A stretch of 64,000 nucleotides of DNA from a phage (GCA_032986305.1 GCA_032986305.1_3672.1); one strand, 5' to 3'. Positions 49,989 to 59,656 are shown, counted from the first letter of the stretch. Numbers and translations: made by a program. Notes: a model not told the origin generated them from the letters alone.

Positions 49989-50026
49989 TTTTAAAGGGGC
50001 TTCGGCCCCATTTTAGAGGTAGAATA

Positions 50027-51115
50027 ATGGCTGTATTTAATGCTGAGAACACCGCTCATAAAACTGGTGACTATCCGCTGTTTCTGGGACAGCAAATGGG
50101 TATGTACGACTCTATCAACAAAAAATATCCACAACTGTTCGAACTGTACAAAAAACAAAAAGAACAAGACTGGGCAGAGGATGAAGTGGATTTGTCGCAA
50201 TCTATTTCAGATTTTGTAACATGCTCCAAGTCAACTTATGATGTGATGGTGCAGACCTTGATGTGGCAATGGGAGGCTGATAGCGTTGCGGCAAGATCGA
50301 TCATCTGCCTCTTTTCACCATTCATCACTAATAGTGAGCTTTTCACTCTATTGATGAAACAGTCAGAGATTGAAGTTCTTCACGCGCTAACTTACTCAGA
50401 GATTGTTAGACAATGCCTCCCCAATGCCCGTGAGATTATAGAAGAGATTCAGGAAAACCAAAACGTTCTGAGCAGATCTGGCGTTATTGTCAAATACATG
50501 CAAGAGCTTGAGGTTATTGGTGCAAAATACCGACTGGATCCTTCTAGTGTTGAAGAAGATATTGTGCGGAAATGCATTCTTAGAGCGCTTTTTGCACTTT
50601 TAGCCCTGGAAAGTATTGAGTTTATTGCAAGTTTTGCATGCACTTTCGCAGTAGCTGAACAGGGTATTTTTGTTCAGGTGGCGCAGCTTGTTCAAAAAAT
50701 CATGCTTGACGAAATGCTACATTCGAAAGGTGATTTTGCCATCATTGATATCCTGCTTAATGATCCGGCATGGGAGAAAAGCTTCCTTGAGATAAAAGGG
50801 GAGTTAAAAGAGATTCTTGATGAAGTACGAACCAAAGAGTACGGTTGGAGTGACTATATTTTCAGCGAAGGAAGAGCGATTATAGGTCTTAACTCACCAT
50901 TGCTTAAAGAATGGGTTGACTATAACTGCTCACCGATTTATGATTACTACGGCATCGACAAAGACTTTGTGCCGCCAACAAAGGACCCTCTACCGTTTAT
51001 GCAGGTGTGGATGAAACCTTCATTGCAACAGACGGCGAACCAAGAAATGTCGAACACTGACTACCGCGTCAACACAACTGTTAATGACGCTGAAGAAGAA
51101 ATTTGGGAGTTTTAA
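50027..51115 (+). CDS. nrdB: ribonucleotide reductase small subunit NrdB
   Basis: immediately downstream of nrdA; ~360 aa; start ATG with GAGG RBS. Confidence 0.75.
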   Translation: MAVFNAENTAHKTGDYPLFLGQQMGMYDSINKKYPQLFELYKKQKEQDWAEDEVDLSQSISDFVTCSKSTYDVMVQTLMWQWEADSVAARSIICLFSPFITNSELFTLLMKQSEIEVLHALTYSEIVRQCLPNAREIIEEIQENQNVLSRSGVIVKYMQELEVIGAKYRLDPSSVEEDIVRKCILRALFALLALESIEFIASFACTFAVAEQGIFVQVAQLVQKIMLDEMLHSKGDFAIIDILLNDPAWEKSFLEIKGELKEILDEVRTKEYGWSDYIFSEGRAIIGLNSPLLKEWVDYNCSPIYDYYGIDKDFVPPTKDPLPFMQVWMKPSLQQTANQEMSNTDYRVNTTVNDAEEEIWEF

Positions 51116-51118
51116 TAC

Positions 51119-51397
51119 ATGAGCTGTGAAAAATCTTTTTTCTTTATTATTTACGGTAAAGATAACTGCCCACATTGTGTAAGAGCAAAAGAATTTGCAG
51201 TCAGTAAAGGTCTGCCTTTTGTATATAAGACACTTGGCGAGGGTTACACAAAAGAAGAGCTTATTGAGAAGTGCAGTCCAATCGTACCCAGAACGTTGCC
51301 GCAGATCTTCTTAGAAAGCAATCTTGAAAGTGCCCATATAGGCGGTGCCGACGATTTCATCTCTTTTGTTAAGAATGGTTTTGGAGAGAAAAAGTGA
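51119..51397 (+). CDS. glutaredoxin/NrdH-like redoxin
   Basis: CPHC active-site motif (..YGKDNCPHCVRAKEF..). Confidence 0.7.
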   Translation: MSCEKSFFFIIYGKDNCPHCVRAKEFAVSKGLPFVYKTLGEGYTKEELIEKCSPIVPRTLPQIFLESNLESAHIGGADDFISFVKNGFGEKK

Positions 51398-52254
51398 AAG
51401 TTGTAAAACGGGACGGTAGAGAAGAGGTCTATAACGGAATTAAGGTGATCAAGGCGGCAGAGTCCGCCTTACTTGAGTCTGGACATACTGAAGAAGAAGC
51501 TTACCGGATCGCCTGCGCGGTTAATGAAGTTGTTGCTAACAATCTACCAACCGACCAGTGCACGATCTCTGTAAAAAATATCCATATCCTTGTTGAAGAC
51601 GCTCTTATGGATATGGGTTTAAAATGTGCAGCCAGAGAATACATCCAGTATAGGCAGACAAGAGATAATAACAGAGAGGCAGGTGGAAAACTGCTTGCAG
51701 ATATTAGTGGCTTCTTGGATCGCACTTGTGATGAATTTACAAAAGAAAACGCAAATAAGCCTACCAATCATGTACACACTCATCGTGACCTGCTTGCAGG
51801 CATCCTTAGCAAACACCTTGCATCAACACAGATCCTGCCAGACCGTGTCTCAGAAGAGCACAATAAAGGCTTCATCCATGTGCATGATCTTGACTACTTG
51901 ATCAGTCCGTTAACAAACTGTTGTTTGGTAAATTATCCAGATATGTTGGAAAACGGATTCAACATTGGTAACGCCCATGTCAGTAAGCCGAAGTCAATAG
52001 GGGTTGCAACAACAATCCTTAGCCAAATTTCTAGTGCAGTAGCTAGTGCTCAGTATGGGGGTCAGACTATGAGCCATATTGATCATTATCTGGCACAGTA
52101 TGCTGAGGCGACCTATGAGAAGAATCTTAAATTTTGCCAGGAACACTGGTTGCCAGATGCTGAGACTGTTGCAATGCAAATGACAGATAAAGACGTATTT
52201 GACAGCATGCAGACTTTGCTCTATCAAATCAATACGTTAACCTCTGTCAACGGT
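51394..52254 (+). CDS. nrdD: anaerobic ribonucleotide reductase NrdD, exon 1 (GTG start)
   Basis: N-terminal ATP-cone-like MKVVKRDGREEVYNG..; reading frame continues into exons 2 and 3 after intron removal. Confidence 0.7.
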
Positions 52255-52568
52255 TAACAAACTGGCCGTTTTAAAACTCTGCTAACCTCAGTATGAGGGG
52301 TCAGCTGATCGCTGGCTAACGGGGAACGCTAAGGCGAAAGCTATGCCAATCCCGTGACTAGCTTCACAAGGAGTGAGGCGGTTGTAACGACTAACCTTTT
52401 GGTGTAGGGATTATGGAAGATTCCGAAACGCAGAGGTCTGATTAAGAATCACACGGTGTGATTTCAGGCAAGAGATAGTCTGGCCTTGTGGAAACATAAG
52501 GGTGGGGACCGCAAACCCCTTTTATCACATTAAGTTTAGGTCTGGACACCTCAGTATTTGGTAGAATG
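52255..52568 (+). mobile_element. group I intron 1 in nrdD (ORF-less, ~314 nt)
   Basis: non-coding insertion between in-frame nrdD segments; R-like AACGACTAACC (52386-52396), S-like AGATAGTC (52473-52480); 5' exon ends in GGT, intron ends AATG; homologous to the other two introns. Confidence 0.55.
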
Positions 52569-52811
52569 ATTACCAAAAACTACTTGAAAGTCCACAAAAT
52601 GGGTCTTGGTGAAGAATGTATCACACCTGTGTTCCCTAAAGTGCTGTTCTTCCTAGAAGAGGGTGTCAACATGAACCCTGGAGATCCTAACTATGATTTG
52701 AAACGTTTAGCTCTGGAATGCTCTGCAGAGCGGATTTATCCTGACTTTGTTTCTGTTCCACTAAATCGTAAAGTGACAGGCTCGACAGATGGCAAAGTAA
52801 CGAGCATGGGT
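52569..52811 (+). CDS. nrdD: NrdD exon 2
   Basis: encodes ..VFPKVLFFLEEGVNMNPGDPNYDLKRLALECSAERIYPDF.. matching recalled class III RNR sequence; ends in GGT before intron 2. Confidence 0.6.
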
Positions 52812-53573
52812 AAACTATAACTGCTCATGTAAAATCTATCTAAACGGGGAAACTCCAGAACGGACAATCCCGTGCTAAACGTAACAGAACTCCTGACCAA
52901 GAGGAGTCCTGAAATGAGAAAACAAATTCGTGATTTTGAAGGTTATGAAATTGACGAGATGGGCAATGTTTATTGCACCCGCTACGAAAATGAAAGAATT
53001 ATTCATTCGTGGGAAGAGATAAACACAGGTTACCGTCTTGTTAGGATACGCAAGAACAAAAAGACTGTTTGCCTAAGGGTTCACAGACTTGTTGCTGAAG
53101 CGTTCTTACCAAATCCAGACAATTTACCCTATGTTAAGCACAAAGGGGACAACAGGAAAGATAACAGTGTATACAACCTTGAGTGGGGAGCTTGCCCAGA
53201 CAATACGCAAGAAGGATACAACAACAACTGTTATGCTTTTTACACAAGATGCCACGGTGTGAAAGCCACCAACAAATTAACTGGTGAGGTTTTCCACTTT
53301 AAAAGTCTGAGATGTTGTGCTGATGTTTTAGGAGTGGATAGAAAAAGAATATCTGCTATCCTGAAACGTGGTGCGCCTAATAACTATGATTACGAGTTCT
53401 GTTACGAAATGCCTAACGACTAACCGTGATGAATGTAGCGGTGTAGGGTGTAAGCCGATGACACTCGAAATGGTAGACACACTAAGTGTGAAGATATAGT
53501 CTGATCTGCATGGGAACATGCAGCAGCACGTAAAGGTGCGGGGGTGGACTTGCGAACCACCCTGAACATAATG
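52812..53573 (+). mobile_element. group I intron 2 in nrdD, carrying an HNH homing endonuclease ORF
   Basis: R-like AACGACTAACC (53415-53425), S-like AAGATATAGTC (53491-53501); 3' core near-identical to terminase intron; exons rejoin as ..TSMG|CRSFL.. Confidence 0.65.
52915..53423 (+). CDS. HNH homing endonuclease (intron-encoded)
   Basis: GAGGAG RBS; motif ..RVHRLVAEAFLPNPDNLPYVKHKGDNRKDNSVYNLEW..; stop codon lies inside the intron R element. Confidence 0.7.
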
Positions 53574-54536
53574 TGTAGAAGTTTCTTATCGAAATATAGC
53601 GACCCTGTAACAGGCGAGGAGAAATACCTTGGCAGATTTAACTTAGGCGTTGTTAGCCTTAACCTGCCAATGATTGCGGCAAAAGCCAAGACGGAAGGTG
53701 TTGATTTCTTTGCAGTTCTTGACGAATACTTGGATCTTGCATACGAGGCTCACCTTGTAAGGGTTAATCGTCTAAAAGGAACAAAGGCAGGGCAGAACCC
53801 CATCATGTGGTGTGAAGGCGCTCTTGCTCGCCTGGATCCTGAAGAGAGTGTTGATAAACTCTTCTATGACGGGTACGCTTCCATCAGTATTGGGTATATT
53901 GGTGTGTATGAAACCTGTCAGATTTTGGGTAGAGAGGGTGACAAGGCTTTAGCTCTTGGAATCCTTCAGCACATGAGAGATGCTTGTGAGCGATACAAGA
54001 AGGAAAGTAGACTAGCGTTTAGCTTGTACGGCACTCCTTCTGAGAGTCTATGCTATAAAGCTGCAACCTGTCTGGATCGTGAATATCCGGAAGTGTTGAA
54101 GCACGAGCATGAATATCTCACCAACAGTTTCCATCAGCCAGTATGGATAAATAGCTCTCCTTTTGATAAGTGGGAGTATGAGGAAGGTTTTGCTATGATC
54201 TCCTCTGGTGGCAACATCGGATACGTAGAAACACCTAACCTGAAAAACAACCTGGATGCTTTAGAGGCTCTTGTTGACTTCGGGTATAAACATATTATGT
54301 ACTTCGGTATAAACCAGCCTGTTGACCAATGCTTCAAGTGCGGTTTCCAGGGAGAATTTAAAGCCTCTCCAAGAGGTTTTATATGCCCTTGTTGTGGAAA
54401 CCATGAGGAGGGAACGATCAGTGTAATTAGACGTGTGTCTGGATACCTTTCCAGTCCTAACTCCCGTCCTTACAATAAAGGTAAGCAAGCGGAAGTTATA
54501 GAACGGGTTAAGCACTATGGAAGTTGTAGTTGCTGA
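53574..54536 (+). CDS. nrdD: NrdD exon 3 (glycyl-radical C-terminal part)
   Basis: CRSFL..GRFNLGVVSLNLPMIA, C-terminal Cys cluster CFKCG..CPCCG and glycyl-radical-like RRVSGYL. Confidence 0.7.
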   Translation, partial: CRSFLSKYSDPVTGEEKYLGRFNLGVVSLNLPMIAAKAKTEGVDFFAVLDEYLDLAYEAHLVRVNRLKGTKAGQNPIMWCEGALARLDPEESVDKLFYDGYASISIGYIGVYETCQILGREGDKALALGILQHMRDACERYKKESRLAFSLYGTPSESLCYKAATCLDREYPEVLKHEHEYLTNSFHQPVWINSSPFDKWEYEEGFAMISSGGNIGYVETPNLKNNLDALEALVDFGYKHIMYFGINQPVDQCFKCGFQGEFKASPRGFICPCCGNHEEGTISVIRRVSGYLSSPNSRPYNKGKQAEVIERVKHYGSCSC

Positions 54537-54539
54537 TAC

Positions 54540-54569
54540 TTGACAGAAGCCACAAGGATGTGGCATACT
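54540..54569 (+). promoter_or_regulatory. sigma70-like promoter
   Basis: TTGACA-N18-CATACT. Confidence 0.4.
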
Positions 54570-54602
54570 TGGCTAATCTATGAGAACCAAGAGGGATCAA
54601 AG

Positions 54603-55559
54603 ATGCCTAGAGGAAAACAACTTACAACTGAAGAATTTACAAAAAGAGCTAGAGAAGTACATGGCGATAAATATGACTATTCAAAAACCGTATATAAAAC
54701 TGCTAAAAGTAAGGTTGTAATTGTATGCCCTGTTCATGGTGAGTTTACGCAGATCGCTGGACATCATATCCTTGACGGTAGTGGGTGTCCTAAGTGTGGT
54801 AGAGTGCCAGTAGGCAATAAGCTTAGAAACGATTCTAGTGATATTATCAAAAAATTTGTAAAAATCCACGGTGACACCTATGATTATTCTAAGGTTGAAT
54901 ATGTTAACTATAAAACTCCTGTAAAAATTGTATGCCCTGAGCACGGAGTGTTCTTGCAATCCCCATCTAACCATTTGAAAGGCCAAGGGTGCCCTGAGTG
55001 TAGTAAACTCATTAGCGCAGCAAAAAGGAATAAAGGCCCTGAATTCATAGAAAGAGCCAAAGAAATCCATGGCGATAAATATGACTACTCTTTTGTAGAT
55101 TATATGACTTGCGAAGATAAGGTAGAGATAATCTGCAACACTTGTGGAAATCACTTCACCCAGACACCTTCTTGCCACCTGTCTGGTCGTGGATGCCCTA
55201 AATGTGCCAAAAACGGTTTCTTATCTCACAACTATGGGAAGCTTTACCTCATGGTTGATAACTTAGAAGCGCCAACACTTATGAAGATTGGTGTGAGCGT
55301 CAATGTAGAAGCGAGGAAGGGAAGGATATTAAGAGCATCCAAGAAGGCTGGTGCAGGTATTTATGATCTCCACATAGTAAAAACATGGGGCGGATCGACT
55401 GAAAACATGCTGAGTGTAGAAAAATCTGTGCATGAAGCCTTCAATAAGTATAAAATAAACTTCTCTAAAGTATTTAGTGGAAGCACTGAATTCTTTCACT
55501 ACAGACCTGAAGTGTTTAGCATAGTGGAAGCAGTATACAAAGAGATCTGTGGTAAATGA
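54603..55559 (+). CDS. free-standing homing-endonuclease-like protein: three zinc-finger repeats plus C-terminal T5orf172/GIY-YIG-related domain (tentative)
   Basis: three repeats of HGDKYDYS..C(P)..HG.F..H..G.GCP.C; C-terminal ..GKLYLMVDN..KIGVS..HIV..; between nrdD and nrdG. Confidence 0.45.
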   Translation: MPRGKQLTTEEFTKRAREVHGDKYDYSKTVYKTAKSKVVIVCPVHGEFTQIAGHHILDGSGCPKCGRVPVGNKLRNDSSDIIKKFVKIHGDTYDYSKVEYVNYKTPVKIVCPEHGVFLQSPSNHLKGQGCPECSKLISAAKRNKGPEFIERAKEIHGDKYDYSFVDYMTCEDKVEIICNTCGNHFTQTPSCHLSGRGCPKCAKNGFLSHNYGKLYLMVDNLEAPTLMKIGVSVNVEARKGRILRASKKAGAGIYDLHIVKTWGGSTENMLSVEKSVHEAFNKYKINFSKVFSGSTEFFHYRPEVFSIVEAVYKEICGK

Positions 55560-55611
55560 TCGTAGAAAGATACACATGTCTTAAATATGCTATTAACTAA
55601 GGAGGTGCAGT

Positions 55612-55728
55612 ATGTCATCGGGTATCTATAAAATCTGCAAGTGCGGTTGTCATTGTAATCTTCGTTGGTGCAAGGCACTGGACGATTTTATTTGGCATTG
55701 CCCTAAATGTGATGCGGAGTATCTATGA
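55612..55728 (+). CDS. small Cys-rich (zinc-ribbon-like) protein, 38 aa
   Basis: AAGGAGGTG RBS; MSSGIYKICKCGCHCNLRWCKALDDFIWHCPKCDAEYL; ATGA overlap with nrdG start; below ORF-track size cutoff. Confidence 0.4.
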   Translation: MSSGIYKICKCGCHCNLRWCKALDDFIWHCPKCDAEYL

Positions 55729-56198
55729 ATATTGCCGGATACACAGAAATATCTTACACCGAAGGGCCAGGTATTAGAACTGCCTTATGGGTATCTGGGT
55801 GCCCACACGCTTGCCCTGGTTGCTTTAATCAGGCATTTTGGTCAAAAGATAAGGGGAGAGAGTTTACTGAAGAAGACTTGCAAAAAATCTTGTCAGATTT
55901 AGATAACCCGTCTGTGTGCGGTATCTCTCTGCTGGGTGGAGAACCCTTAGCATACTATAATGAGCCAGATATTATTAGCCTGATGGAGAAAATTAAGGAA
56001 AAATTTGGTGACAAGAAAACTATTCTTGTATATACTGGGTTCACATTTGACCATATCTCTAGTGATGTTCTTAAACTGGCTGATATCATCATTGACGGTA
56101 AGTATGTAAAAGATTTACCAACCAAGAAACCGTTCCGAGGTAGTGATAACCAAAGAATGTTTAAAAAAGTATCAGGCGGTTGGGTTCAGGTAGACTAG
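55725..56198 (+). CDS. nrdG: anaerobic ribonucleotide reductase activating protein NrdG (radical SAM)
   Basis: 157 aa; N-terminal Cys cluster ..WVSGCPHACPGCFN..; adjacent to nrdD. Confidence 0.65.
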   Translation: MNIAGYTEISYTEGPGIRTALWVSGCPHACPGCFNQAFWSKDKGREFTEEDLQKILSDLDNPSVCGISLLGGEPLAYYNEPDIISLMEKIKEKFGDKKTILVYTGFTFDHISSDVLKLADIIIDGKYVKDLPTKKPFRGSDNQRMFKKVSGGWVQVD

Positions 56199-56201
56199 TT
56201 G

Positions 56202-56231
56202 TTGACAAAGCTTTGTTAAGTTGGTTATAAT
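56202..56231 (+). promoter_or_regulatory. sigma70-like promoter
   Basis: TTGACA-N18-TATAAT. Confidence 0.5.
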
Positions 56232-56260
56232 TGTCGTAATGAAAGCAGAGGAGGTGCCAA

Positions 56261-56374
56261 ATGGCTAAAAAAGCCTTGAAGAAGGCGTACAAGAAAGAGA
56301 TTGCGCTTGAGCTTAAGAAAAAACACAAGCGTGAAAAGAAACATCATGAGGATGAAGAGGGGGTGCAACAGTGA
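56261..56374 (+). CDS. small highly basic protein, 37 aa
   Basis: GAGGAGG RBS then MAKKALKKAYKKEIALELKKKHKREKKHHEDEEGVQQ; below ORF-track cutoff. Confidence 0.35.
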   Translation: MAKKALKKAYKKEIALELKKKHKREKKHHEDEEGVQQ

Positions 56375-56721
56375 CACAAGAACGTATCGATTTGGCTAAT
56401 AAGTTTGTAGATCTCATTTTGCCACGGTTAGTTACTCAACATGCAGACGCTATTTCTACTAATCTTGATGGCTTACGCCTAATGCTGAATCGCACAGATG
56501 ACCCTCGTATTCGGGCTGATTTAGAAGCCTCTGCCAACAAACTGGAAAAGTTCTTGCAAGTAGATACGCAAGAGGCCTTACACAAGATTATGGTGGAAGG
56601 TTTCTCTAAAGAATTTACCATTAAAGAGCTTAAGGAGCTGATCCACCAAGAAGAGATGAATATCCGAGTTCAGGCTGTTGCAAGCAGCATGGAAGCGGCT
56701 ATTGAAAAACTGTTGCAGTAA
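56371..56721 (+). CDS. hypothetical protein (116 aa, GTG start)
   Basis: ORF overlapping upstream stop. Confidence 0.3.
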   Translation: MTQERIDLANKFVDLILPRLVTQHADAISTNLDGLRLMLNRTDDPRIRADLEASANKLEKFLQVDTQEALHKIMVEGFSKEFTIKELKELIHQEEMNIRVQAVASSMEAAIEKLLQ

Positions 56722-56759
56722 AAGTGCTTGGTACATCTCAATCTGAAAGGAGTCCCAAC

Positions 56760-57548
56760 ATGGGTCGAGCTAAAGAAACAAAACGCATGCGTGATGAAGC
56801 TAGAGAGGCTCGCAAATCTGATCGCCTGCGTAAGGCTGCTGAGAAATTTGCTGACGAACGAGAGCACACCGCTCCAGCTCTCCGACCAATGAATAAGAAG
56901 CAGCAAAAGTATCTTGATTATCTAGGGTCACGTAAGATTATTATTGTAAACGGTGTGTTTGGATCCGGTAAGACATTCATGGCATCTGCATATGCAGGTG
57001 ATCTTCTGCGTAAGAACGAGATTGATAAGATCATTGTTGCACGTCCTTATGTACAGACCGGAAAATCAAGCGGATACAAACCGGGAACGTCAATGCAGAA
57101 GCTTTGGCCTTACCTTCGTAGTATGATGGACACTATTTGTCGTCGTGTTGGCAAAGGTGCTTTTGCCGCAATGCTAGGAGACGGTCAGAACAGCCGTATC
57201 GAGATTTGTGAAGTTGAAAGCATTCGTGGTCGTAGTTTCGATGAGCGATGCTTTGTCCTGATTGACGAGGCACAGCAAACTAACCCTGAAGAAATGTTGT
57301 CAATTATCACAAGGATCTCTGATCAGGCAACCCTTGTAATTATGGGCGATAATAGCCAACGTGACATCCCTGGTAAATCTGGCCTTGCATGGGTGACGGA
57401 TTTCTTTACTCGTCATCCAGATCCTGAGGTTGGAATGATCAGCTTTGATAGTCCAGACGATGTCGTTCGTTCCGGGTTGGGTCGTCAGATTGCACTCAAT
57501 CTTATTGAGGATCGTGCAAATCATATTTGGACCCCTGTTTCCGAGTAA
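56760..57548 (+). CDS. PhoH-like ATPase
   Basis: Walker A GVFGSGKT, Walker B-like LIDEAQ; start ATG with GAAAGGAG RBS. Confidence 0.6.
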   Translation: MGRAKETKRMRDEAREARKSDRLRKAAEKFADEREHTAPALRPMNKKQQKYLDYLGSRKIIIVNGVFGSGKTFMASAYAGDLLRKNEIDKIIVARPYVQTGKSSGYKPGTSMQKLWPYLRSMMDTICRRVGKGAFAAMLGDGQNSRIEICEVESIRGRSFDERCFVLIDEAQQTNPEEMLSIITRISDQATLVIMGDNSQRDIPGKSGLAWVTDFFTRHPDPEVGMISFDSPDDVVRSGLGRQIALNLIEDRANHIWTPVSE

Positions 57549-57555
57549 TACAGAA

Positions 57556-57580
57556 GGGTGGTTATTCCACCCTTAAATAT
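57556..57580 (+). terminator. terminator-like hairpin
   Basis: GGGTGG-TTATT-CCACCC followed by TTAAATAT. Confidence 0.35.
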
Positions 57581-57592
57581 CTAAAACAGTTG

Positions 57593-57621
57593 TTGACAAA
57601 TAGGCAAGCTTTAGATATTAT
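57593..57621 (+). promoter_or_regulatory. sigma70-like promoter
   Basis: TTGACA-N17-TATTAT. Confidence 0.5.
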
Positions 57622-57649
57622 TATCGGACAAAACAAGGAGGAGGACAGT

Positions 57650-57961
57650 ATGGCTACAATACAAGAGAAACTGAATAAAATATACTGCCTGTTTGTCTAT
57701 AACGGCGAGACAATTTTGGCAAATAAAGGATCCAAGAATGTGTGGATCAAGGACAGTGGTGGTAATATAATCAACTTAGCGTTGCTACGTGAGCGCCGAC
57801 ACAGATTCTTTATCGAGTCTCGGATTATTGAAAGCAGCACCTGCTACAGAACAGGCGATAAAGTAATTGTTGACAATGATACGTGGTATGTGGTAGACTG
57901 GCAATCATTGAGTTGTGATGCTTCTGACAATCGTAAGTATTCCATAGTGATTGCTAAATAA
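57650..57961 (+). CDS. hypothetical protein (103 aa)
   Basis: strong AAGGAGGAGG RBS before MATIQEK. Confidence 0.4.
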   Translation: MATIQEKLNKIYCLFVYNGETILANKGSKNVWIKDSGGNIINLALLRERRHRFFIESRIIESSTCYRTGDKVIVDNDTWYVVDWQSLSCDASDNRKYSIVIAK

Positions 57962-58021
57962 AGGTAAATGTGAATCAGGTTTAAATAAATAGCTTTCAAC
58001 TTCCAATATTAAGGATTTCTC

Positions 58022-59071
58022 ATGAATTTAACACCTCGCAGCACCATGGTACACGGCATGAAAGAAAAACAGAACGGTTTCGAACCTATGAGTAATAAAA
58101 TGTTTGGTATGCCGGGCGGTATCATGGAAACATACAGCTACCCAACACCTGTTGTTGACCACGTTCTTTATATCGACGATTTGGAAGACCTACAGGATCA
58201 TATGTCTCGTCTGCAGACGATCCGTATGGCTCAGCCGGAAGAAAGCATTCGGGTAATCATCAATAGCCCTGGGGGTTGCGTGCACATTGCAATGGCTTAT
58301 CTGCAGGCATTCCGCGAGTCTCAGGCAAGCGTTGTTGCACATGCTGAAGGGATGTGCTGCTCTGCTGGAACAATCCTATGGCTGGGTTGCAAAGAACGCA
58401 CCGTGGCTCCGGACACAGAGTTTATGTTCCACTACTATCAAGGCGGCACTTATGGTAACGGTGTGAACATGAATACTCAGGTCAGCTACTGGAAAAAACG
58501 TTTCGAACGCCTGATCGAAAAATACTACGGTGGGGTGCTTACAGAAGATGAGATCGCATCCATCACAGCTGGTGGCGAAGTGTGGTTGGACGGAGAAGAG
58601 CTGGCAGCACGCACTGGAGCTATTATTCTGGATGAAGGCAACATACAACGCATCCAGAACGGACAAAAACCGAAAAAGCTTCTGGCAAAAGGTGATGAAG
58701 AAGGCGTGTTAGGTGAAGCAGGTCTTCCGGAGATTCACCAGTGCACATCTTTAGATGAGTTAGTTCATGCTGTTGAATCTGCAAAAGCGGGTGGTTCGAA
58801 AGGTGATGTTCACACTGTGTTCCTGAATCTGCAGATGGAGAGTGGCGAGACCGTCAGAATTGCCCTGGGTGAGATTACTTCAGAAGATCTGCAGAGATTC
58901 TCTGTCGTTGAACTTCAGGATATTCTGTCTCAATTGAAGACTACTCTGAACGGCGGTGAAGAGGTTAAGGTGAAAGATAAGACTCGCAAGCGTCTGGTGG
59001 ACAATATTATTAAAACAGCAAAAGAGCTCAATGAAAAAATCCTGGGTGCAGGAATTGTCGAAGAAGCTTAA
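58022..59071 (+). CDS. ClpP-family serine protease-like protein with C-terminal extension
   Basis: ..IINSPGG.. motif, Ser in GMCCSAGT, His in MFHYYQ; 349 aa. Confidence 0.55.
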   Translation: MNLTPRSTMVHGMKEKQNGFEPMSNKMFGMPGGIMETYSYPTPVVDHVLYIDDLEDLQDHMSRLQTIRMAQPEESIRVIINSPGGCVHIAMAYLQAFRESQASVVAHAEGMCCSAGTILWLGCKERTVAPDTEFMFHYYQGGTYGNGVNMNTQVSYWKKRFERLIEKYYGGVLTEDEIASITAGGEVWLDGEELAARTGAIILDEGNIQRIQNGQKPKKLLAKGDEEGVLGEAGLPEIHQCTSLDELVHAVESAKAGGSKGDVHTVFLNLQMESGETVRIALGEITSEDLQRFSVVELQDILSQLKTTLNGGEEVKVKDKTRKRLVDNIIKTAKELNEKILGAGIVEEA

Positions 59072-59122: not shown

Positions 59123-59656
59123 ATGACTTGTGCTAGAAAACCTGATGAACAACGTAACGCCTACGATGAGTATGTGACACCGGAGTGGTGTGCAGAAGGG
59201 CTGTATGACCTTATTCCGTTCCCAGAAGACTGGACCTACTTAGAGCCTTGCAGGAATAGTGCCTCAGGTGTGTTCTACTCCCGTATGCCGTTAGGATCTG
59301 CATGGGGAGAAATCCAAGAAGGTGTTGACTATCTGAATACAGAATACAACCATGTTGACTGTATTATCACCAACCCACCATACAGCCTGGCTCGTGAGTT
59401 TGTAGACAAGGCGTTGAAAGATGCTGACGTAGTTATTATGCTTTTGCGTCTTAATTTTCTGGAAAGCAAAACCAGATTCGAATGGTGGCTTGATAATGCA
59501 CCTACCACTGTGATCACAATATCTAAGCGCCCGTCATTCCAATCCAATGGTAGAACGGATGGGCAGGCATATGCATATTTTGTATGGGACAAGAAAAACC
59601 GTCTAGACTTGCCGCCATTTATGTGGTTGGCACCACCAGAGGCAGACTTGAAATGA
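59123..59656 (+). CDS. small DNA methyltransferase (N6-adenine type, motif IV NPPY)
   Basis: ..CIITNPPYSLA..; 177 aa. Confidence 0.5.
   Translation: MTCARKPDEQRNAYDEYVTPEWCAEGLYDLIPFPEDWTYLEPCRNSASGVFYSRMPLGSAWGEIQEGVDYLNTEYNHVDCIITNPPYSLAREFVDKALKDADVVIMLLRLNFLESKTRFEWWLDNAPTTVITISKRPSFQSNGRTDGQAYAYFVWDKKNRLDLPPFMWLAPPEADLK

Follow-up and report, generated by a model that had tools for sequence, protein, structure and literature searches.

A predicted T5orf172-class homing endonuclease gene in the nrdD-nrdG spacer of an rV5-like coliphage

The gene that lies between nrdD and nrdG in the phage DNA analysed here (a stretch of 64 kb, which we call the window) is, with a probability of roughly 80% as judged from sequence comparison, a free-standing homing endonuclease gene of the T5orf172 class. 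It resides on a cassette which some Vequintavirus genomes have and others lack at a single exact site, the genomes being otherwise about 97% identical. Its product is predicted to consist of three treble-clef-type zinc-finger modules, arranged like beads on a string with flexible linkers, and a C-terminal nuclease of the GIY-YIG superfamily. That we are dealing with a selfish, mobile endonuclease gene of a phage family described before, in this case in an rV5-like coliphage, is well supported by these comparisons.

Both the architecture and the association with ribonucleotide reductase genes have already been described by Barth et al. 2023 (PMC10448857), and they are ordinary for a large virulent phage. 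The window gene leaves the knowledge of the T5orf172 endonuclease class unchanged; its practical value is that of a tractable test system for homing. It provides a clean, well-delimited T5orf172 cassette in widely used E. coli phages (rV5-like, BASEL collection), and with crossable isolates that have empty sites, exact junctions and shuffled alleles, cleavage, target, over-transmission and the recognition rules of the zinc fingers become testable.

Genomic setting and start of the gene

The window region is 92-98% identical to many Vequintavirus genomes, and by this similarity the phage is a Vequintavirus, i.e. an rV5-like E. coli myophage. The gene order is nrdB, glutaredoxin, nrdD, the endonuclease gene, a Cys-rich ORF of 38 aa, nrdG, two small ORFs and phoH. 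The preliminary description had placed the gene between nrdD (stop at 54536) and nrdG (start at 55725). This holds, with the refinement that the gene lies 5' of the 38-aa ORF, and the ORF list and the sequence also confirmed the coordinates given for it (Table 1).

The reading frame is intact and runs from an ATG to a TGA stop that lies within its coordinates. A Shine-Dalgarno sequence, GAGGG (54591-54595), is spaced 7 nt from the ATG at 54603. Two alternative in-frame starts exist upstream, TTG 54540 and ATG 54558, the latter being the one chosen in the phiWec189 annotation. The alignments with homologues begin at about residue 5 of the 318-aa form and none reaches further upstream, and the codons upstream of 54603 are spacer sequence that is also found in genomes without the gene. 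Hence 54603 is the likely start. The two upstream starts were set aside, as no alignment extends upstream of 54603 and the Shine-Dalgarno sequence fits this position.

PHROG 681 ("endonuclease") matched across the full length of the protein (1.3e-67), and the NCBIfam scan of the protein gave no model match. Annotations of the gene within the Vequintavirus group vary between "hypothetical protein", "putative homing endonuclease" and "putative GIY-YIG nuclease family protein"; the endonuclease assignment corrects the first of these labels in phiWec189.

Table 1. Features of the endonuclease cassette and its surroundings, in window positions
Feature	Position	Strand	Remarks
Left flank co-inherited with allele A	54435..54567	+	last 102 nt of nrdD and 31 nt of spacer; identical in all three carriers
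Promoter-like site TTGACA-18-CATACT with upstream TG	54540..54569	+	straddles the left junction; consensus match only
Hairpin GCCACA-AGGA-TGTGGC	54549..54564	+	RNA fold; directly 3' of the nrdD stop, followed by the left junction
Inserted cassette	54568..55599	+	1,032 bp; replaces about 18-22 nt (TTATTGACACACAGTGAG...) of the empty site
Putative homing endonuclease CDS	54603..55559	+	318 aa + stop; Pfam/PHROG/NCBIfam scans; 100% aa identity to phiWec189 BDU13544.1
Zinc-finger module 1	54621..54797	+	aa 7-65; ligands C42-x2-H45...C62-x2-C65; DUF723/CapR-type match
Zinc-finger module 2	54828..55001	+	aa 76-133; ligands C111-x2-H114...C130-x2-C133; DUF723 best at aa 97-134
Zinc-finger module 3	55035..55205	+	aa 145-201; ligands C178-x2-C181...C198-x2-C201; DUF4379 at aa 170-203
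Predicted T5orf172/MUG113 (GIY-YIG superfamily) nuclease domain	55233..55550	+	aa 211-316
Conserved 38-aa Cys-rich ORF, right flank of the insertion site	55612..55727	+	from sequence; annotated in relatives; overlaps the nrdG start

Domain organisation of the protein

Three tandem zinc-finger repeats had been noticed in the preliminary description, and the motif, the ligands and two Pfam families above their curated cut-offs bear this out. Each repeat contains an HGD(K/T)YDYS motif and two zinc knuckles. The repeats are pairwise 45-53% identical, with alignment scores 13-16 standard deviations over those of shuffled controls. In the region of the repeats DUF723 scored 39.7 bits (cut-off 20.9), and DUF4379, a "probable treble clef zinc finger", scored 37.8 bits (cut-off 24.5). 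Among the aligned homologues 11 of the 12 zinc ligands are listed as invariant, the exception being C181. The model of module 1 comprises a helix, a beta-hairpin and a knuckle (pLDDT 80-88). By analogy with CapR (PMC10448857), the modules are putative sequence-specific DNA binders.

In the C-terminal part (aa 215-304) Pfam found MUG113 with 28.6 bits (cut-off 22.3) and T5orf172 with 26.6 bits (cut-off 20), both of the GIY-YIG clan. A model of the isolated C-terminal domain has a GIY-YIG-type alpha/beta fold, and in the fold search it resembled the GIY-YIG nucleases Slx1 and I-TevI. Thus the T5orf172/GIY-YIG relationship proposed from first inspection agrees with both the Pfam thresholds and the predicted fold; the Pfam search assigned nuclease families and no non-nuclease family to this domain. 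The fold search with the full-length model (pTM 0.39) gave meaningless matches only, because the domains are flexibly linked, and among the PDB sequences no match was found up to an E value of 10.

Nine residues are invariant across eight full-length homologues: Y215, K228, G230, R238, E273, G293, T295, E296 and F298. Going by their positions, Y215 belongs to the first "GIY" strand, K228-I-G230 to the second strand and R238 to the first helix, and E296 is part of a G-x-T-E-F motif. Judged by motif position, the catalytic Arg (R238), the metal-binding Glu (E296) and the first-motif Tyr (Y215) appear to be retained. Their equivalence to R27/E75 of I-TevI and to E180 of Odn is suggested by the position and order of the motifs rather than by a residue-level structural superposition. 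For the nuclease domain, dN/dS was 0.23 against allele B and 0.17 against allele B2 of the same site (see below); values of about 0.2 indicate that the domain is under purifying selection.

Relatives of the nuclease domain occur outside the virulent phages as well. Seven of 5,426 complete E. coli genomes contain a gene for a "zinc-ribbon domain-containing protein" (for example NZ_CP030768.1, 4290113-4290474) whose nuclease-domain part is 67-70% identical in nucleotide sequence, and the phages mEp013 and mEp021 have a gene resembling it. Hence the domain is common to this virulent phage, other phages and bacterial chromosomes. In the wider database such repeats are also fused to a C-terminal PF04480 domain (JGI "very-short-patch-repair endonuclease") instead of T5orf172.

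A second copy of the endonuclease gene is absent from the whole 64 kb window. In phiWec191, a second T5orf172/zinc-finger paralogue, 39% identical to the window protein, lies directly 3' of phoH (locus L005, 8330-9259). SophiaRose (L004, from 7061) and navn (L003, from 7633) have a gene of equal length at the corresponding position, which in SophiaRose is the annotated GIY-YIG nuclease.

Insertion site and its occupancy

BLAST comparison with the empty-site phages RudolfGeigy and phiWec191 placed the breakpoints at 54567/54568 and 55599/55600, between which these two phages have about 20 nt. The empty site reads ...GCCACAAGGATGTGGCATA, followed by TTATTGACACACAGTGAG and then by CTAGGAGGTGCAGTATG, which leads into the small ORF. 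At the window junctions the left and the right sequence of the empty site are kept and flank the 1,032 nt, which are made up of a 35-nt leader, the endonuclease gene and a 40-nt tail.

To survey occupancy, a 256-nt empty junction was used as the query against all phage records. It matched 122 records. The site is uninterrupted in 92 of them, and about 27 related records are occupied, with identical breakpoints in all (query positions 115/138). Roughly a quarter of the phages bearing the site are occupied and the breakpoints are constant.

Around the cassette, no intron signal appeared when 50000-58000 was scanned with Rfam; the group I intron matches in this range are confined to nrdD (52245-52501 and 53418-53523). 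The cassette sits in an intergenic spacer, so that the gene is not intron-encoded in the manner of I-TevI, and its initial designation as free-standing is confirmed. The suggestion that it is a homing endonuclease gene likewise gains support from comparison: the site is empty in most relatives, divergent alleles occupy identical breakpoints, and the flanks are recombined.

The small ORF to the right of the site (MSSGIYKICKCGCHCNLRWCKALDDFIWHCPKCDAEYL) overlaps the nrdG start in the sequence ATGA, and the Pfam scan assigned it to no family. The region 55612-55727 has an 84.5% nucleotide match in the unrelated podovirus vB_EcoP_ACG-C91. In rV5, APECc02, ime, isim, WalterGehring, Mangalyan and PMBT16 (L088, L090, L091, L092, L084, L085 and L101), one or two extra small ORFs are found between the 38-aa ORF and nrdG. 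They are 105 and 237 nt long, the 237-nt one being mis-named "minor capsid protein", and the window has none of them. The gap between nrdD and nrdG is therefore a hot spot for several independent insertions or deletions.

Several GenBank records of the MG0656xx series that are labelled "Campylobacter phage" (A147, D1, A142 and others) are rV5-like Vequintavirus genomes, 95-96% identical to the region, and two of them (L098, L099) are flagged UNVERIFIED. The Campylobacter host label is probably wrong.

Alleles with a common nuclease and shuffled zinc fingers

The site is not occupied by one gene. By sequence its occupants fall into at least six alleles: A (the window, phiWec189 and the metagenome contig L007), B (navn, A147, D1 and PMBT16), B2 (JEP1), C (SophiaRose and O157 typing phage 14), D (WalterGehring and nom) and E (Mangalyan). 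Overall the products of the other alleles are 47-52% identical to the window protein, and in the phage database no relative outside allele A exceeds 53%. In IMG/VR no close relative of the protein was found, the best matches (about 54%) covering the repeats only.

The nuclease half is more alike between alleles than the remainder (76-84% nucleotide identity). The zinc-finger arrays vary, with three or four modules in differing order. Module 3 of the window protein is 72% identical to module 2 of the WalterGehring and Mangalyan alleles, i.e. by sequence one module stands at different positions of the array, and module 3 is also nearest to B2 module 1 and C module 3. The nearest relative of module 2 is module 2 of the navn allele (53%). 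A second module type, CxxC...W (DUF4379-like), is at position 3 in B and D and at position 2 in B2, and allele E looks like D modules 1-2 followed by B2 modules 2-3. Judged by these alignments, the alleles share the nuclease domain and the zinc-finger modules are shuffled.

A speculative extension, which we regard as rather improbable, is that the nrdD/nrdG spacer holds a natural allelic series, with one nuclease domain joined to various shuffled zinc-finger arrays, whose members re-specify, or compete for, targets in and around the end of nrdD. The recoded part of the glycyl-radical coding region that accompanies all five sampled B-type alleles (see below) would fit this. If this were true and each module read a definable DNA word, the series could yield a recognition code for DUF723/CapR fingers. 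It would then also allow homing by a T5orf172 endonuclease to be tested directly for the first time, and this with E. coli phages that are easy to handle.

Movement of allele A and its flanking DNA

Allele A was found in one of 50,697 phage records (phiWec189) and in one metagenome contig. The phiWec189 cassette differs from that of the window by 1 nt in 1,032 (99.9%), with a protein identity of 100%, and the contig copy differs by 3 nt; across the three genomes the allele is 99.7-99.9% identical. As sampling of IMG/VR through NrdG gave two loci only, the population comparison was done base by base on a sample of 24 loci from GenBank and metagenomes.

The carriers have different backgrounds: nrdD is uninterrupted in phiWec189, and that of the window has two intervening sequences. 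Between these two phages there is a single mismatch over 54393-56143, and outside this range there are 2-6 mismatches per 100 nt on both sides; overall, their flanks diverge by 2-3%. The stretch 54393-54567 (175 nt) is 100% identical solely in phiWec189, the next best among 175 records reaching 96.6%, and the flank SNP G54546 is exclusive to the allele A carriers among the 24 loci. With the metagenome contig, identity starts at 54435; the left crossover thus differs from pair to pair. We considered reading the entire 1.75-kb tract shared with phiWec189 as a conversion tract and rejected this for its right side: nrdG is just as invariant in phages that have another allele or no cassette, so that the boundary on the right is not readable.

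These patterns suggest that the cassette moved recently between genomes together with a short left flank. That the nuclease was the cause of this movement is our proposal, and the mosaic pattern could also arise from ordinary homologous recombination between co-infecting phages without a nuclease.

Loss and decay are a usual part of the life cycle of homing endonucleases. The gene could accordingly be placed at this stage, as an inactive or decaying relic that once homed and now moves by general recombination and by hitch-hiking with the nrdD/nrdG region; the rarity of the allele (one phage record of 50,697 and one contig) and the large share of empty sites would fit. Yet such a relic seems unlikely, since its reading frame is intact, every residue that is invariant in the family is kept, and dN/dS is about 0.2 across alleles. 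Moreover, no more than 3 nt separate any of the three copies of allele A, as would be expected after recent spread and not after long decay.

Candidate target site

If the gene is an active homing endonuclease gene, as we prefer to read it, the following course can be proposed for a mixed infection. The zinc-finger array would bind a long asymmetric site in a genome without the cassette, most likely the intact spacer between nrdD and the small ORF, and the nuclease domain would cut near the bound site. Repair of the break by recombination with the cassette-bearing genome would then transfer the cassette, along with part of its flanks, to the cut genome. As insertion takes away about 18-22 bp of the spacer, the carrier genome would be self-immune, provided that the junction lies within the target.

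Apart from the cassette itself and the allele-specific G54546, no flank polymorphism cleanly splits empty from occupied sites in the 24 loci. Two nrdD haplotypes exist at 54374-54436, with nine synonymous differences in seven codons for ISVIRRV and with NHEEGT alternating with CHDEQY. As a target or immunity mark of allele A they were rejected, because each is found together with alleles A, C and D as well as at empty sites, and neither goes with a particular cassette allele. The intact spacer, which is conserved in every empty site and disrupted by every cassette, is the simplest remaining candidate.

The B-type carriers present a different picture. All five (L003, L006, L098, L099 and L101) have 12 substitutions within 38 nt (54443-54480), with one amino-acid change, a cluster that is absent from all 19 other loci. 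The segment encoded there directly follows the glycyl-radical Gly. In four of the five the nrdD C-terminus is replaced, and a terminator-like hairpin and a new promoter-like site follow. This is the pattern that one would expect if the B-type enzymes cut in this stretch and were inherited together with an nrdD end resistant to them.

Expression signals and the possibility of a regulator

The promoter-like site at the left junction is the best sigma-70-type match in the region (10 of 12 positions). Empty sites have an identical -35 box and spacer, then CATATT, then the small ORF and nrdG, and in phage Gotham a predicted promoter is annotated at the corresponding place. The hairpin 3' of nrdD is conserved in empty and occupied sites alike (24 loci) and is an annotated terminator in phage Murica. 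A scan between the endonuclease gene and the small ORF found no terminator-like site. With the cassette behind the promoter-like site and no terminator-like site following, the gene is probably co-transcribed with nrdG and the operon not interrupted; the cassette appears to sit in the 5' leader of the small-ORF/nrdG transcript without ending it. In the predicted fold of the leader RNA, both the Shine-Dalgarno sequence and the AUG lie in base-paired stretches (z -2.9 relative to shuffled sequences). Such pairing would recall the translational control of other phage endonuclease genes.

The promoter-like site adjoining the cassette also bears on the idea that the protein is a DNA-binding regulator, whose zinc fingers would tune nrdG or other genes through the adjacent promoter region while its nuclease is vestigial. 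[quoted passage not shown] However, Barth et al. ascribe no nuclease domain to CapR (PMC10448857), whereas the nuclease domain of the window protein is complete, conserved and under purifying selection. As far as the sequence tells, the protein is therefore not CapR-like in function. A regulator would also leave unexplained why the cassette is all-or-none at a single site with many shuffled alleles, and we consider this reading very improbable.

Comparison with known systems

The classical GIY-YIG homing endonucleases, the Seg proteins of T4 (SegA-G) and I-TevI, have an N-terminal nuclease, and the DNA-binding part of I-TevI consists of a zinc finger and a helix-turn-helix/NUMOD. In the window protein the order is reversed, with zinc fingers at aa 7-201 and the nuclease at aa 211-316. 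Its DNA-binding modules differ, and it lacks the canonical second Tyr as well as the His/Tyr of the first helix. The reversed order, the other DNA-binding modules and the lack of an intron rule out that it is of the T4 Seg type or the I-TevI type.

Much closer are the T5orf172 proteins with repeated CapR/DUF723/DUF4379 zinc fingers, whose genes have been noted near those for ribonucleotide reductase and which are regarded as putative homing endonucleases (PMC10448857). Like gp165, gp174 and others of Vibrio phage ICP1 (PMC10448857), the window protein has tandem zinc fingers at its N-terminus and T5orf172 at its C-terminus. As with the ICP1 genes, the gene is free-standing and lies beside essential genes including ribonucleotide reductase, and its modules are repeated and shuffled; such modularity is general among T5orf172 endonuclease genes according to Barth et al. 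2023 (PMC10448857). In contrast to the ICP1 genes, it belongs to a Vequintavirus lineage of E. coli, which is absent from that paper. Barth, Dunham and Seed 2023 regard homing of T5orf172 genes as experimentally unverified (PMC10448857); compared with the systems treated there, the empty site, the exact breakpoints and the allelic series at a single locus can here be read directly.

Among the T5orf172 members found here, Odn (Gp88) of ICP1 is the sole one with in vitro cleavage data, and it is a distant relative of the window protein. It cleaves DNA in vitro, an activity that is lost in the mutant E180A (PMC8263062). The usual first-helix His/Tyr is missing from Odn and the catalytic Arg and Glu are kept (PMC8263062); the window protein, which belongs to the same nuclease family, resembles it in both respects, as far as its putative catalytic residues can be assigned. 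The two differ in how they would bind DNA: Odn has a RepA_N domain that was taken from a satellite, and its target is the replication origin of this satellite (PMC8263062), whereas the window protein has zinc-finger repeats.

The example of Odn raises the question whether the window gene, too, is a site-specific nuclease repurposed against co-infecting phages or a satellite, the patchy distribution then reflecting selection for a benefit. Purifying selection on the nuclease domain would be consistent with such a role, and so would the relatives of this domain in seven E. coli chromosomes (67-70% nucleotide identity), by which exchange with elements of host genomes occurs. Against this, Odn binds through RepA_N and has no zinc-finger repeats, no target outside the phage was found, and PADLOC gave no significant match to a defence model (best E 0.006). 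The one exact site, either empty or occupied, and the co-inherited flank are typical signatures of homing. Hence we think a nuclease directed at competitors unlikely, and favour the homing endonuclease.

Further observations in the window

Relative to nrdD of phiWec189, nrdD of the window is interrupted twice, at 52254-52510 and at 52812-53581. The first intervening sequence (257 nt) contains no ORF, while its counterpart in JEP1 has one. The second (770 nt) contains an ORF of 183 aa (52872-53423) with weak, sub-threshold HNH_3 and I-HmuI NUMOD-like matches. Both gave sub-threshold Rfam matches to group I introns (29 and 35 bits; gathering score 50), and their presence varies independently among relatives.

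Further downstream in nrdD, an orphan patch of 100 nt (54293-54392), which encodes the C-terminal zinc-ribbon segment QCFKCGFQGEFKASPRGFICPCC, differs from all 24 loci at about 30 positions, several of them amino-acid-changing. With queries of 181 nt (54270-54450) and 79 aa, the best matches in the 50,697 phage records were 83% in nucleotide and 88.6% in amino-acid sequence, and the flanks are 96-100% identical.

Two ORFs downstream of the locus are unrelated to the cassette. The one of 177 aa (59123-59656) has weak, sub-threshold matches to adenine methyltransferases of the Dam/EcoRI type, and the one of 349 aa (58022-59071) has a clear match to a ClpP-like protease domain.
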